A stretch of DNA of 64,000 nt from positions 60,492 to 124,491 of the forward strand of contig CAYZGO010000004.1 of assembly GCA_964478075.1 (NCBI GenBank), given 5' to 3'. The translations under genes and the position numbers were made by a program. Origin of the DNA: an uncultured Anaerolineales bacterium. Its GTDB lineage: Bacteria > Chloroflexota > Anaerolineae > UBA2200. Below, one piece after another: positions 9,966-38,543 of the stretch (within the stretch, counting starts at the first letter, position 1; each line of letters opens with the position of its first letter). The notes beneath the pieces were generated by a model. That model was not told where the DNA came from and ran no database searches. It saw nothing but the letters and a program-made list of their open reading frames with translations.

Positions 9966-11072
9966 TTGACTGAGAAGGGCAACATCTGCGGTACTTCTGC
10001 GGATATCGCACAACAGTTGGCAGCGGCGATTGACGAGGTGTTCACGGTTGACCAAATCACTGCTGGCCTGCGCGATGGGCGAGCGATAAAGCTACAGGGA
10101 CAGCTTCTCACCGACTCGGAGCAGGCGTACGCTTACATAGCTGCGCGCTTCAAGGACTATGGCTACACACCGTTCTTGCGCCAACAAACTGGGCACGTGC
10201 TCGTTACCGCTATCCCTGTCGTCTTCACTGCTAAGCCAGCCGGGAATTATGGCGCCATCCTATTGTTCGCTCTGACTATCCTTTCGGTGCTGTTTGCCGG
10301 CACAGCAGCACAAGCCGCCGATCTGCAGTGGCTGCTCAGTCACCCCCTGGCCGGGTTGCCTTTCGCCGCCAGCCTTCTCGCCATCTTGACTGCACACGAA
10401 CTGGGACACTACTTCATGGCACGGCGGCTTGGCGTAGCGGTCAGCCTGCCCTATTTCATTCCCATGCCGCTGAGCCCCTTGGGCACCATGGGCGCCGTAA
10501 TCCGGATGCGAACTCCGACGCGCAACCGCCGCCAACTCCTGGCCATCGGTGCTGCTGGGCCCATAGCTGGCCTGATCGTTGCCATTCCCGTCCTCATCCT
10601 CGGCCTACTCCTCTCAGAAGTGCGGGTCATCCTCATGCAACCAGGAACCTGGATGGAGGGCAACTCCCTGCTGTATGCAGCGCTGAAATTGCTCGTGTTC
10701 GGGCAGTTTCTGCCCCACAATGGCTACGACGTCTTCCTGCATCCGGTGGCATTCGCAGCGTGGGCTGGGTTGCTGGTTACTGCATTCAATCTGATTCCTG
10801 CCGGACAGCTTGATGGAGGTCATATCGCCTATGCCCTCTTCGGAAAGAGTACGCGCTGGCTGAATCGTCTCGCTGTCCTGGTAGCTATGGCTCTGGGTCT
10901 TGCTTGGTCCGGCTGGTTCCTTTGGGCGGCCATTCTCCTCCTACTGGGCCAGCGCAGTGTACAGCCACTAGATGACGTCACTCCATTGACTGCTGGACAG
11001 AAAGCGCTCAGCGTTTGTATGCTGATCCTATTCGCTTTGCTGTTCACGCCCATACCCATGTCCATACTCTGA
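9966..11072 (+). CDS. site-2 protease family (peptidase M50) membrane metalloprotease
   Basis: HELGH zinc motif and NLIPAGQLDGGH third-ligand motif, multiple TMs. TTG start behind an AGGAGGA RBS. Confidence 0.8.
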   Translation: MTEKGNICGTSADIAQQLAAAIDEVFTVDQITAGLRDGRAIKLQGQLLTDSEQAYAYIAARFKDYGYTPFLRQQTGHVLVTAIPVVFTAKPAGNYGAILLFALTILSVLFAGTAAQAADLQWLLSHPLAGLPFAASLLAILTAHELGHYFMARRLGVAVSLPYFIPMPLSPLGTMGAVIRMRTPTRNRRQLLAIGAAGPIAGLIVAIPVLILGLLLSEVRVILMQPGTWMEGNSLLYAALKLLVFGQFLPHNGYDVFLHPVAFAAWAGLLVTAFNLIPAGQLDGGHIAYALFGKSTRWLNRLAVLVAMALGLAWSGWFLWAAILLLLGQRSVQPLDDVTPLTAGQKALSVCMLILFALLFTPIPMSIL

Positions 11073-11107
11073 CTGGTAACTGCCAACTGACAACTGCTAA
11101 CTGTCAA
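11073..11107 (+). repeat. heptanucleotide tandem repeat CTGGYAA x5 in the 5' leader of the CBM48 gene
   Basis: CTGGTAA CTGCCAA CTGACAA CTGCTAA CTGTCAA starts right after the M50 stop codon and ends 14 nt before the ATG at 11121. Same unit and orientation relative to the downstream gene as the tract at 19312-19427. Confidence 0.7.
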
Positions 11108-11120
11108 CAGGAGCATATGC

Positions 11121-11420
11121 ATGATCACGAAGACGACTTCCAACGACCCTGCTAAAGTCACCGTCAGATTCGAACTGCCATCGGCCATCTGGGCCGATTC
11201 AGTTCACCTGGTAGGAGAATTCAACGACTGGAGCGAAACCTCTCACCCGATGACACGCAACCGCCATAACGATACGTGGCACATCACGCTCGAACTTGAA
11301 CGGGGAAGAGAGTACCAGTTTCGATACCTGGTGAACGCCCATGAATGGCATAATGATTGGAAAGCAGATAAGTACGTGCCCAACCCCTTCGGAGGCACCA
11401 ACTCGGTCATTGTGACGTAA
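11121..11420 (+). CDS. small glycogen-binding (CBM48 / AMPK beta GBD-like, isoamylase N-terminal-like) domain protein
   Basis: 99 aa. Motif HLVGEFNDW...HPM...W...G.EYQFRYLV..W.ND resembles CBM48/E-set glycogen-binding domains. CAGGAG RBS. Confidence 0.55.
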   Translation: MITKTTSNDPAKVTVRFELPSAIWADSVHLVGEFNDWSETSHPMTRNRHNDTWHITLELERGREYQFRYLVNAHEWHNDWKADKYVPNPFGGTNSVIVT

Positions 11421-17610: not shown

Positions 17611-17877
17611 GAACCTGACCTACTGGATCTACCCAAGCTGCCCATGAGTCATTTGGTTCACAACTGGAGATGGAAACCGTATTCGCACCACCATGTAGCC
17701 TAGCCCTTTACGGTTCGTGCCGCCTGATCGTTCATCCTCGCGTACCATCTTCCCCGTCAGGGTGTCTCCTTTGTCTCTCGACACCTTTGTCACGTCTGAC
17801 AAAGACGTGGAAGACGAGAGGTCGCCCCCCTGCGGGGCCCTTCGGCGGCGTCGCTCGCCTCAGTCTCTGTCGTTCCC

Positions 17878-17925
17878 CGTTTACGCCTTCCGTTTACGCC
17901 TCTGGCGTAAACGGAAGGCGTAAAG
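17878..17925. repeat. 21-bp near-perfect palindrome (CGTTTACGCCTTCCGTTTACGCC tctg GCGTAAACGGAAGGCGTAAAG) inside an 825-bp non-coding gap
   Basis: 20/21 complementary arms with a 4-nt loop. Flanking sequence carries further, less perfect inverted repeats. Confidence 0.6.
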
Positions 17926-18295
17926 ACAAAGGTGAGACAGAGGCGACGAACGGCGCTTGACGGGACGGGATGGACGTTTGGAACGGGGACCCCGTCAGGC
18001 GGGGCGAACGGCAAGCCCCTATACTACAAGTTCGTATTATTCGTGCACTGCTTTCCCCACGTGAGATTGGCCAAAACCCAGATCGACGCACACCAAGCAT
18101 GTGGCTTGCCTCTACTTCGCTACATAGATATCCAGCTAGTTGGGGGCAGGACAACGTCCAGCGTTAGTCCCATAGCGTCCTTCCTTGCCCATCACTTGTG
18201 CGCCCAACCTGAACTACGTCGCGTCCAAAGCCAGATTCTGAGTATTATACACTATTGCTCTGTCAGCCCCCAATTGAGGGTCTGTAGTAGCGACG

Positions 18296-19378
18296 TCAGT
18301 GGCCGAGCAAGTGCGGAAAGGCAACTCGCGTTGCCACTACGAGCCTATCAGTCAGCGCTTCTATCACTGCTTCCGTGGATACCGCCTCCAGACACATCCG
18401 CTGGCGGCAGCCGCGCCGCTGCTCAACGCCGCACGGCGCGCAAGGTGTTGTGCCTCGCAGTATGCGCACCAATGCTCCGCGTGGTGCCCACACGTCCGCG
18501 TCGGTTGGCCCGAATATGGCCACTGTAGGCACGCCCACGGCCGCTGCCAGGTGGCTCACCCCTGAGTCGTTGCCCAGATAAGCCTGGCAGCGTGCCAAAA
18601 TCGCCGCTAGCCGGTGCAGAGACAAGTTGTGCAGCATGATGCATTCCTGCCCGTCCAGCGCTTGCCTCACCTTGCCAACAGCGCTGGCATCTGCCGGGCC
18701 GCTGAGCAGCAAGATGCGCGGCCCACGTTCACGCGCCAGGTACTGCGCTACAGCGGCAAAGCGCTCTGCAGGCCAGTTCTTCGCCGTGCTGCCGCTGCCA
18801 GGATGTATGGCCACGACCAGTTGATCTCCCAGGCTGTGCTCTTTCCACCACTGCGCGGCATCCTGCTGATCCGCCGCTGTGAGTGCCAGACATGATGGTT
18901 CAGCCTTCGTTGCCACACCTAGCTCCCGCAGAGGCTGCTGCAGATACTCACTCATGTGCACGCGCAAATACGGCACTGGCCGCGCGTCGAAGCTCAGCAC
19001 CTTGCCACGAGCCGCACGCGCCAGGTTGCGCGCGAAAGCATGCGCTGGCGGCGTGGCATAGGAGACAACGAGGTCAAACTGATCGAGGTAGCGCTGGAGC
19101 CGCACGCTGGGCACTGCATCCGGTTGGAACAGGGCGCTCAGGTCGGCACGGTCAAAAGATGACACAGCGGTGACCACGGTGCGGCCAGCCAGCAACCGCA
19201 GTACCGCCAGGTCGCCCATCACCTCAATAGCAGCTTCCGGGAACCTGGCCCGCAGTCCCTCCAGGGCCGGCAGGGTGAGCAAAACGTCGCCCAGGGCACC
19301 GGGACGCAGAACCAGTATCCAGTATCCAGTTGCCAGTTGCCGGTTGTCAGTTACCAGTTTCCAGTCACCAGTTGCCGG
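18296..19378 (-). CDS. glycosyltransferase family 9 (heptosyltransferase-like); 5' end runs into a heptanucleotide repeat tract and has no canonical start codon
   Basis: Conserved GT9 N-terminal strand WILVLRPGALGDVLLTLPAL lies upstream of the TTG that the ORF track used as start. The open frame continues to a TAA at 19379-19381 with no ATG/GTG/TTG between that stop and the motif. Confidence 0.65.
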   Translation of the reverse strand, partial: PATGDWKLVTDNRQLATGYWILVLRPGALGDVLLTLPALEGLRARFPEAAIEVMGDLAVLRLLAGRTVVTAVSSFDRADLSALFQPDAVPSVRLQRYLDQFDLVVSYATPPAHAFARNLARAARGKVLSFDARPVPYLRVHMSEYLQQPLRELGVATKAEPSCLALTAADQQDAAQWWKEHSLGDQLVVAIHPGSGSTAKNWPAERFAAVAQYLARERGPRILLLSGPADASAVGKVRQALDGQECIMLHNLSLHRLAAILARCQAYLGNDSGVSHLAAAVGVPTVAIFGPTDADVWAPRGALVRILRGTTPCAPCGVEQRRGCRQRMCLEAVSTEAVIEALTDRLVVATRVAFPHLLGH

Positions 19379-19456: not shown

Positions 19457-21115
<1,659 letters not shown>

Positions 21116-24196: not shown

Positions 24197-26017
24197 CTAC
24201 TCACTGCTCACCACTCGCAGTTCCACGTCGTCCAGGTACACCGCCGTGATGCCATCGTGCCCATCGTTTTTCACACCGAAGCGCAGATTGACGCGCTGCC
24301 CTGCGTAGCCCAGCAGGTCGAAGGTGCGCAGGTTCCAGGCTTGATTGTGGTCTGTCCAGTAGGTGCAGTCTGACTCGCCACCGCCGCTAGTAGGGAGCAC
24401 GCAGAAGTAGATGAGATCCCCATCCACCTGCGCGCTCACTGGAAAGTAGTAGAAGGACAGCTCCGCCTGCGTCACCCCGCTGGGGATATCCACCGTCTGC
24501 TGCACAGAGGAGTAGCTCTCCACGTTGTAGCCAGTGTCAATCCCCAGGCGCATAGAGCGCGAGCCGCTGTGCGCACGGCCCACAGAGTAGCCTGCCGGGT
24601 AGGTGGTCCGCAAGATCTCCCACGCCTCCTCCCTCTCAAAGCTGTGATTGAGAATCAACTGTGTGTATTGTGGAGTGGACGTTGCAGTCGCCGTGGGCGT
24701 AGGCGATGGTCCAGTCGTAGGCGTCTCCGAGACTCCAGGCGTGAGGGAAGGGCTGGGTGAGGGCGTCGCACTTCCCGTGAGCGTGGGCGAAGGACTGGGC
24801 GATGGCAGTGCAGTCGCCGTAACCGTAGGGGAAGGGCTGGGCGAGGGCGTTGGACTCGGCGTGACCGTAGGCGAAGGGCTGGGCATGGGCGTCGGATAGC
24901 CTCGCAGCACGATGGGCAGAAAGGCTCTGGAAACCAGCTCTTCGAAAAGGCCATAGGACAATCCGGCCTGGTACACCGCCTCTGCCACCGTCCGCGGGTC
25001 AGGGGCAATACTGTAAGGTGTGTCGTCAAAGGCATACGCTCCCACAATCCAGACAGAGCCTTGAAAAACCAACGTGCGCTCATTCATGGGCAGCGTAGGC
25101 GAGCCAGGGTTCAGGCTGTGGCTGGCCTCGTAAGCATCAAAGCCGTGGAACAACAGTGCGTCCACGTCCCAACCACCAGCAACCAATGCATCGCGCTGCT
25201 GAATCAGCGTTGCGTATGCTTCCGCTGCCTGGCCAAAACGCTGTATCCAGGCCTCAGCGAAATGGCCTGCCGCGGCTGCATATTGCATCGTGTACAGAGG
25301 GTAGTGCACCACCACCTCCGAAGGCCAGCCAAGCGTGCGCGCAGCGTCCTCCAAGACCATCTGCTCAATGTCCTTGTGGGTGGCCGTAGGTGAAGGCACA
25401 TGCGTAGGAGTAGATGTCGGCGTGGCTGTCGCGGACGTAGGCGAAGGAGAAGCTGTAGGCCCACTGACGGTGATGGAATCACCGATCCACGTGGCCACGA
25501 TCGGTTCCGCGCAGTGGTTCGCCAAGACGCCACGGGTGAAGGTGATGCCACTGGTACCCGGTCTGAGCGCACGGAAAGTAATGCGTGCCAGCACGCCGCT
25601 TCCGCTCGCCGGCTCTCCAGGCGGAATGAGGGTCACTGTGTAAGTGATGGCGCCTGTCTCGTTCACAGCCTCATTCCGCGCCGGATAGAGCCACAACAAA
25701 TCCAGGAAGTCGCCTGGCTCAATCTGCACGCCAGTCCTGGCGGGGTGTGCGTCCTCTACCCACAGCACGTTGGGATCAAAAGAGACGGTCAAGTCCAACC
25801 CATAGAGATTCACGACGTCCCGCACCTGTATCTCGACGATGGCAGTCTCGCCCGCTGCCACCACGCTCGAAGCAGGCACGATGAGCACCTGCGTACTTTG
25901 CGTCTCTTGGCCATCCAAGATGCCAAGAGACTGTGTGCCCCGTGCATCCCCGGCGCCGAGCAGCAGCAAGGTAAGCGCCATAGCGACCAATGACACGAAC
26001 ACAGTCAGCCTGCGCAT
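24197..26017 (-). CDS. secreted cohesin-domain protein with Pro/Ser/Thr-rich linkers and a C-terminal beta-rich domain
   Basis: Signal peptide, then a cohesin-like domain ([27 protein letters not shown]...[10 protein letters not shown]), two PT/PS linkers and a C-terminal domain of about 150 aa. Confidence 0.7.
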
Positions 26018-38236: not shown

Positions 38237-38543
38237 GTCGGAATGTCATTCCGACGTACTATGCTGCGTCGGTCAGAGCTCGCTCCGTAAGTCGGAATGT
38301 CATTCCGACGTAGCACGCTCCGTCCGTCGGAGTTCGCCCCGTTGGTCGGAATGTCATTCCGACATAGCACGCTCCGTCCGTCGCAGCTCGCTCCGTTGGT
38401 CAGAATGTCATTCCGACTTAGCACCCTCCGTCCGTCGGAGTTCGCTCCGTTGGTCGGAATGACATTCCGACATAGCACGCTCCGTCCGTCGGAGTTCGCC
38501 CCGTTGGTCGGAATGTCATTCCGACTTACTACGACGTACTATG
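38237..38543. repeat. tandem array of a palindromic repeat with 54 bp periodicity, six copies of the 19-bp core, last unit partial (GTCGGAATGTCATTCCGAC core plus 35-bp near-identical linker); BIME/REP-array-like, adjacent to the second RAYT gene
   Basis: Six near-perfect 19-bp palindromes at 54-bp periodicity. The linkers are about 85% identical to each other, so they are not CRISPR spacers. All three forward frames stay open only because the unit is 18 codons. Confidence 0.8.

Follow-up and report, generated by a model that had tools for sequence, protein, structure and literature searches.

The five tandem heptamers that separate a Peptidase_M50 gene from a CBM48 gene in a 64,000-nt stretch of DNA from an uncultured Anaerolineales bacterium (the whole stretch analysed, called the window below) form, judged by their sequence, an AACTG-core heptamer array of an already described class, whose middle bases are degenerate here and whose host belongs to a new phylum. 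On balance, and with little more than even confidence, we favour the view that this array (array 1) is a DNA-level AACTG-core microsatellite that is transcribed as a weakly structured intercistronic leader. We are led to this view because the array is not conserved at orthologous junctions, motifs that may have seeded it are present in the spacer, the periods of the two arrays in the window point to block duplication, and the second array, which precedes a GT9 glycosyltransferase gene (the GT9 array), has both turned over between species and cost its gene the start codon.

Array 1 consists of five contiguous CTGNNAA units that begin at the first base past the M50 stop codon (TGA, 11070-11072), exactly as the first-pass annotation of this DNA had described (Table 1). 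The junction reads CTC TGA, the five units, CAGGAGCATATGC and ATG, and the distance from the last unit to the CBM48 ATG at 11121 is 13 nt rather than the 14 nt given earlier. A partial sixth unit overlaps the Shine-Dalgarno (SD) sequence AGGAG at 11109-11113, which lies 7 nt ahead of this ATG. We take the ATG as the real start because the N-terminus MI(T/K/R)K is conserved in CBM48 homologs. The longer products of some homologs (113 versus 99 aa) were considered as possible translated repeats, and this was rejected since the extensions are actually C-terminal tails. Three stop codons (TAA 11077-79, TGA 11088-90 and TAA 11098-100) fall within the array and between them block two forward frames out of three. 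Rotated, the unit reads YAACTGN, which is a variant of TAACTGA; in the TAACTGA register the array reads TAACTGC, CAACTGA, CAACTGC and TAACTGT, each 1-2 nt away from TAACTGA, with AACTG invariant. Even the M50 stop, when read on as TGACTGG, has a single mismatch to the repeat unit in the YAACTGN register. The unit CTGGYAA, which had been proposed as common to both arrays, fits only the first unit of array 1, while the CTG..AA frame, and thus the AACTG core, is indeed common to them.

Table 1. Features around the two heptamer arrays (positions counted from the first letter of the window).
Feature	Position	Strand	Basis or remark
Peptidase_M50 gene, 368 aa	9966..11072	+	ORF list; Pfam PF02163, E 2e-24
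Heptamer array 1	11073..11107	+	CTGGTAA CTGCCAA CTGACAA CTGCTAA CTGTCAA
Partial sixth unit CAGGAG	11108..11113	+	overlaps Shine-Dalgarno AGGAG
CBM48 / isoamylase early-set domain protein, 99 aa	11121..11420	+	Pfam PF02922 (CBM_48), E 1e-11; homolog N-termini
GT9 glycosyltransferase gene	18296..19318	-	motif ILVLRPGALGD directly after array
Second (GT9) array, 16-17 units, consensus CTGGCAA	19311..19427	-	same core; 35-nt higher-order period (Tandem Repeats Finder)
Urocanate hydratase hutU	19457..21115	-	Pfam; upstream of GT9 array

Chance does not account for either array. Three consecutive CTGNNAA units were matched five times in the window against 0.00 expected from 100 shuffles, two consecutive units eight times against 0.11 expected from shuffles, and all of these tandem matches lie inside array 1 or the GT9 array. 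When the search was carried about 5 kb beyond the window ends, no further array appeared, so that about 70 kb of this genome holds two. Tandem Repeats Finder reports array 1 with a period of 7 (4.4 copies) and, as the better solution, a period of 14 (2.2 copies, 88% matches). All differences between its units fall in the two middle positions, and those positions differ in all five units. The probability of the five changes being confined to 10 of the 35 sites is about 8e-4 uncorrected and about 0.02 when corrected for the post-hoc choice of positions. This pattern of letters weakly hints at a constraint on CTG..AA and is a point against the microsatellite reading, though unrelated heptamer arrays likewise vary mostly in two positions.

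By the names of its homologs, the organism belongs to Anaerolineae, Chloroflexota. The NTP-transferase, M50, CBM48, phosphodiesterase and TrmO genes lie on one strand with short gaps, and neither a promoter-like nor a terminator-like site was found between M50 and CBM48; array 1 is therefore most likely the intercistronic part of a single mRNA. A promoter or terminator reading of the array itself was rejected for the same lack of a site. The M50-CBM48 spacer measures 48 nt, and the array fills its entire non-conserved part. An Rfam search with E up to 1 returned no family at array 1 or at the GT9 array. Compared with shuffles, the predicted fold of the array 1 region has a z-score of +0.6 over 121 nt and -0.2 over 60 nt, and the 35-nt array alone folds at -6.5 kcal/mol (z -1.7, with 13 of 200 shuffles folding as well).

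We compared the junction within the species and among relatives, which were gathered by a metagenome scan with the CBM48 alignment and by contig look-ups. The 48-nt spacer is letter for letter the same in eight metagenome contigs of different samples, whose identity to the window is 99.37-100%, and the nine assemblies of the species thus show no length polymorphism of array 1, which is weak evidence at this divergence. The array is absent from the M50-CBM48 junction of four syntenic relatives (L132, L133, L212 and L215, with amino acid identities of 77%, 71%, 73% and 74%, respectively), and no array was found at 32 more distant loci. The ordinary spacer of the relatives retains just the end motifs TAACTG and CAACAGGAG. 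In L212 it is 47 nt long and reads CTC TAA CTGCATCCGCCTGCCACTGGCCGTTTACGGTCAACAGGAGCATTGGC ATG, with a non-repetitive middle; its ends, CTCTAACTGC ... GGTCAACAGGAGCAT with TAACTGC at the 5' end, match the ends in the window, and the block GTCAACAGGAGCAT around the SD is kept. L133 has GGTAACTGCAACCAG at the corresponding place. Since the syntenic junctions lack the array, array 1 is younger than the splits from these relatives, and the junction comparison shows it to have arisen within the lineage of this species. From their letters, two similar motifs of the stop-codon and SD contexts look like its seeds. The proposal that array 1 is a conserved cis-regulatory element finds no support, given its absence from the four syntenic junctions; of the marks of a conserved cis-regulatory RNA, neither an Rfam match nor conservation at orthologous positions was found here.

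The GT9 array starts 30 nt past the hutU stop and extends into the N-terminal codons of the GT9 gene. Further copies were collected via the 328-aa GT9 product, and three further assemblies carry 17 units exactly as in the window; an exact-product look-up of hutU for more copies returned nothing. The number of units at this junction differs between relatives, with none in L215, about one in L216, three in L212 and L213 and four in L214, against 16-17 in the window. The GT9 orthologs begin MRILVIRPGALGD, and in the closest of them (L216, 75%) the junction reads CTGGTAA CTGAGG ATG CGT ATT CTG GTT. The corresponding junction in the window reads CTGGATA CTGGATA CTGGTTC TGC GT and translates as (Y)W-I-L-V-L-R-P, so that at 19282-19330 on the minus strand (Y)WILVLRPGALGD lies inside the last repeat units, where the orthologs have their MRILVIRPGALGD start. 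There is no in-frame ATG, GTG or TTG between the last in-array stop and TTG 19282, which sits past the conserved catalytic-loop GD motif of GT9. The GT9 array has replaced the ancestral ATG. The remaining GT9 ORF is intact in four assemblies, and the gene has either become a pseudogene very recently or is translated from a non-canonical start (AUA or CUG, 19312-19317). As read from these junctions, losing the start codon is what an expanding repeat does, and not what a regulator that serves the gene would do. The sense RNA of the GT9 array has a predicted fold with z -3.05, unlike that of array 1, and the array contains one weak promoter-like match (9/12).

The GT9 junctions of the relatives carry some features of their own. 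A GAGG-N6-GTG upstream of the units (L212 10001-10075; L214 210-290) would translate the three or four units in frame, with predicted peptides LATGNWQ and ATGNWE from the upstream GTG in L212 and L214; in L214 the extra 7-nt unit is offset by an upstream 1-nt deletion and the frame stays open. In three relatives an unrelated heptamer family, (GCGTGNN)n, stands directly past the hutU stop and upstream of the CTGGYAA units (L212 9975-10030, L214 about 180-240, L216 about 370-420). In another Chloroflexi MAG (L217 9800-10000), units of about 45 nt, GCGCGCTAAAGCGCGCACTACGAAC..., are repeated in tandem upstream of the GT9 ortholog, in the place of the heptamers.

We suggest that slipped-strand or block duplication could have built array 1 from two short motifs that the spacer already had, TAACTG where it meets the stop and CAACAG at the SD. 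The periods of 14 in array 1 and 35 in the GT9 array indicate block duplication. Slippage in many bacteria would favour units of seven bases; the literature describes an excess of heptamers among bacterial microsatellites, with polymerase slippage suggested as the cause, and in many bacteria heptamers are the most over-represented long microsatellites. The array would then persist because a repeat in this place and orientation is tolerated. As part of the NTP-transferase / M50 / CBM48 / phosphodiesterase / TrmO mRNA, its RNA may do no more than present the SD, as a weakly structured spacer whose stops close two of the three frames; it would be a constitutive leader and neither a switch nor the site of a dedicated regulator. 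The absence of length change in the nine assemblies is a point against the microsatellite, though non-identical units would be expected to slip only rarely.

The closest known counterparts of array 1 are the TAACTGA direct repeats, of which 170 sets were described in one Beggiatoaceae genome (MacGregor 2015, Front Microbiol 6:1397, PMC4679880). In that survey 147 of the 170 sets point at a start codon, mostly only a few nucleotides off, some sets run over the end of the preceding ORF, those interrupted by related 7-mers are counted too, and the repeats occur in Cyanobacteria and five Bacteroidetes as well; the forward strand has stops, neither strand folds, and the positions are strain-specific (PMC4679880). 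Indels in 7-nt steps have been reported between Cyanothece strains, and in the later literature we found no experiment on the TAACTGA unit. Array 1 resembles these repeats in being made of contiguous 7-nt direct repeats with an AACTG core (CTGATAA is a rotation of TAACTGA), and in being intergenic, forward, near a start codon and provided with forward-strand stops. It differs in that TAACTGA is fixed while the two middle bases of the unit vary here (YAACTGN), in that its Anaerolineae host belongs to a phylum outside that survey, and in number, since 64 kb of the window hold two arrays and the Beggiatoaceae genome 170 sets. In addition, array 1 retains a canonical SD, and sets of this 'with RBS' class are a minority of 15 out of 170. 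We also considered that the forward strand might be favoured as the less structured one; this idea was rejected because array 1 folds at -6.9 kcal/mol in reverse against -6.5 kcal/mol forward, and because MacGregor's table has TAACTGA unstructured both ways.

Other heptamer families are more distant. The cyanobacterial STRR repeats are likewise tandem, intergenic and 7 bp in unit length, but their unit sequences (CCCCART, TTKGTCA and CAACAGT) and their taxon differ, and they are usually long and near-perfect. The GGGAATC / GGGGAYT heptamers of Xanthomonas and Nostoc are rich in G and fold into quadruplexes (Rehm et al. 2015, PMC4692102), which the unit in the window cannot do because it holds a single G or GG only.

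When four exact CTGNNAA units were searched for in 185,579 species genomes, at least 120 loci (L009-L128) were obtained. The matches listed include Cyanobacteria, Acidobacteriota, Planctomycetota, Bacteroidota, Chloroflexota, Poribacteria, Ignavibacteria, Beggiatoaceae and others, and AACTG-core arrays are thus far wider than their published distribution in three groups. We then recorded, for 135 arrays in the at least 120 loci listed, whether a gene boundary occurs no more than 30 nt from either array end; genes were called with our own self-trained codon scoring, in which starts are less certain than stops, and the loci are ascertained by the repeat pattern. Classification by longest ORF was dropped, as many arrays of high-GC genomes then fell within antisense shadow ORFs. 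Among the matches listed, the 3' (..AA) end faces same-strand gene starts in 30 arrays and opposite-strand gene stops in 43, while the 5' end does so at six starts and six stops; the asymmetry has p = 7e-5 for starts and p = 6e-8 for stops, and the start comparison weakens to p = 0.02 when eight arrays inside antisense ORFs are taken as possible reverse starts. By phylum, start- and stop-adjacent 3' ends among the matches listed number 4 and 0 in Planctomycetota, 2 and 0 in Chloroflexota, 6 and 23 in Cyanobacteria, and 8 and 11 in Acidobacteriota. Stop-adjacent arrays among the matches listed are most frequent at a distance of 5-6 nt from the complemented stop codon, and a relative of the window organism has one such array (L212 17119-17139). 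In SD-using phyla, arrays halt just before an intact SD (L009 GGAGG, L025 AGGAG, L038 AGGAGG, L053 AGGAG, L084 GAGG).

These counts bear on the condition under which the first-pass annotation would have given up its reading, namely that arrays show no bias of orientation or position relative to genes. A bias is present, but it is a polarity towards both kinds of ORF boundary and not towards the 5' leader alone. As for the shared orientation of the two arrays in the window, both are indeed forward, yet two arrays in 64 kb amount on their own to a coin flip. The forward bias at starts (30 versus 6 among the matches listed, and likewise in Beggiatoaceae) is a further point against the microsatellite, since a neutral process needs an extra assumption for it. 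The idea that arrays grow 3'-ward until a gene blocks them was rejected, because gene-proximal halves are more degenerate than distal ones (33 versus 15, p 0.013, among the matches listed).

The loci also informed us about the variation inside units. Among the matches listed, deviations at C, T, G, N, N, A and A number 14, 37, 32, 86, 94, 34 and 22, respectively. Position-specific variation as evidence of selection on the core was discarded, both because the loci were ascertained with that very pattern and because unrelated heptamer arrays likewise concentrate their variation in two positions (85% versus 65% under the null). In 1.2 Mb of fetched loci, arrays of at least three copies number 28 at period 6, 375 at period 7 and 29 at period 8, which puts period 7 ahead by over ten to one; the period-7 count is inflated because the loci were fetched for period-7 arrays, and 114 of the 375 have unrelated units that were not selected for.

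The strongest competitor of the microsatellite is a functional post-transcriptional leader, in which (CUGNNAA)n RNA 5' of the ribosome-binding site would set the translation rate of the downstream gene. A general protein that binds single-stranded RNA, for instance ribosomal protein S1 or one with a cold-shock domain, might cover the array in register at about 7 nt per footprint, or the array might serve as a ribosome standby site; a cold-shock domain covers roughly 7 nt. A post-transcriptional leader role is also what MacGregor proposed for TAACTGA repeats, with S1, Csp and CsrA-like proteins as candidate binders (PMC4679880). Array 1 runs forward and ends at the SD, both arrays in the window point at the downstream gene, start-adjacent arrays are biased forward both in our sample (as counted among the matches listed) and in Beggiatoaceae, arrays of SD-using phyla stop short of the SD, CTG..AA is invariant while NN varies, and array 1 has no significant RNA structure in its sequence context. 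Against these observations stand the four relatives with the same junction and a conserved SD context; since they lack the array, the CBM48 gene does not need it. Moreover, the genome holds only two arrays in about 70 kb, the GT9 array destroys the start codon of its own gene, its RNA is predicted to be structured, unlike that of array 1, and the literature names no binding protein for any member of the class. A function in the 5' leader also cannot explain the 43 stop-adjacent arrays on the opposite strand among the matches listed. We consider this reading unlikely, though by no means far-fetched.

More doubtful still is a broader proposal, in which a pan-bacterial oriented AACTG-core element, read by a conserved factor with a 7-nt register, marks translation or ORF boundaries. 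Arrays could then stand forward before start codons and reverse just after stop codons, and array 1 would have been newly recruited and would tune CBM48.

A further reading is an element acting in the DNA itself, be it an array bound by a factor, a boundary mark or the trace of an oriented DNA process, with its ..AA end facing an ORF boundary regardless of gene direction. The start- and stop-adjacent classes are united only by a strand-independent view. The reading draws on the 30 and 43 arrays with a facing 3' end, set against six and six with a facing 5' end among the matches listed, and on the stop-adjacent arrays that peak close to the stop complement, the one in L212 included. On the other side, no candidate factor is known, a 7-bp period places successive sites on different faces of the helix, the counts come from our own gene calls (starts less certain than stops) on a pattern-ascertained sample, and array 1 touches a boundary at both ends and is therefore uninformative. 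We regard a DNA-level element as improbable.

A slightly slimmer chance goes to a phase- or length-variable spacer, that is, a contingency locus where gain and loss of 7-nt units would switch or tune expression. Like contingency loci, the arrays are tandem repeats near the 5' end of a gene, and one of these genes encodes a glycosyltransferase; species have different numbers of units at the GT9 junction (0, 1, 3, 4 and 17), and the Cyanothece indels come in steps of 7 nt. However, array 1 has five different and imperfect units without a perfect tract, and the other assemblies are identical to the window, eight at array 1 and three at the GT9 array, so that within-species length polymorphism is lacking. 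Array 1 also lies neither in an ORF nor in a -35/-10 promoter spacer. The related suggestion of a length-variable spacer between promoter and ribosome-binding site thus finds no promoter, a 48-nt intercistronic gap, units that all differ and nine identical assemblies.

The first-pass annotation had also likened array 1 to a TRAP site. TRAP and HutP sites do share with it a short reiterated core with variable spacers in a leader RNA, and unlike it they have another core triplet, another period (TRAP) and another repeat number, are linked to a terminator or antiterminator, and are conserved in orthologous operons. A TRAP site holds 9-11 GAG/UAG triplets placed 2-3 nt apart upstream of a terminator/antiterminator, whereas no GAG or UAG occurs in 11073-11107, the only GAG (11111-11113) belonging to the SD just after it, and array 1 has just five units at a period of 7 rather than 5-6. 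A HutP site has three UAG triplets with 4-nt spacing and a 7-nt period; the period matches array 1, but the array has no UAG. TRAP and HutP are not known to occur outside Firmicutes. A dedicated oligomeric RNA-binding regulator of this kind is highly improbable by such analogy, in spite of the regular period, the conserved core with variable spacer and the chance position of the GT9 array after hutU, as array 1 lacks the triplets and the units, has no terminator or antiterminator to act on and is not conserved in orthologous operons, and core arrays occur in many phyla without TRAP and HutP. The phase-variation and the TRAP- or HutP-like readings fail because the features that define them are missing here.

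Based on these comparisons, we advise against annotating array 1 as a riboswitch-like regulator or as a phase-variation site. The case provides a dated example of an array that arose after the split from relatives with 71-77% protein identity and whose apparent seed motifs can still be recognised, next to a second array of the same genome that expanded over the start codon of a gene. The cross-phylum sample takes the TAACTGA phenomenon well beyond its three described groups, and if the polarity of the ..AA end holds in complete genomes, it would constrain any mechanism and make the question testable.

Two further arrangements were seen among the fetched loci. In an Anaerolineaceae MAG (L009 4270-4335), (TTATCAG)6 is followed at once by (GTGTCAA)3, so that arrays with the same core and opposite polarity stand back to back, just downstream of an apparent structured RNA gene. 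The common cyanobacterial unit CTGTCAA reverse-complements to TTGACAG, which presents a perfect -35 hexamer (TTGACA) every 7 bp, and arrays of this unit (L012, L026, L036, L123 and others) often precede the next gene of that strand by about 100 nt.

The window contains other repeats and hairpins. At 38237-38525, a 54-nt unit is repeated in 5.4 tandem copies with 89% matches, and each copy contains the palindrome GTCGGAATGTCATTCCGAC. A 42-nt, G-rich tandem repeat of 3.7 copies (75% matches) is located at 24740-24894. A long and nearly perfect hairpin, CCGTTTACGCCTTCCGTTTACGCC ... GGCGTAAACGGAAGGCGTAAA, occupies 17862-17945; its weak matches to Rfam microRNA families are artefacts of the hairpin shape, and the best promoter-like site of the region (17610-17582, minus strand, 11/12) is close by.
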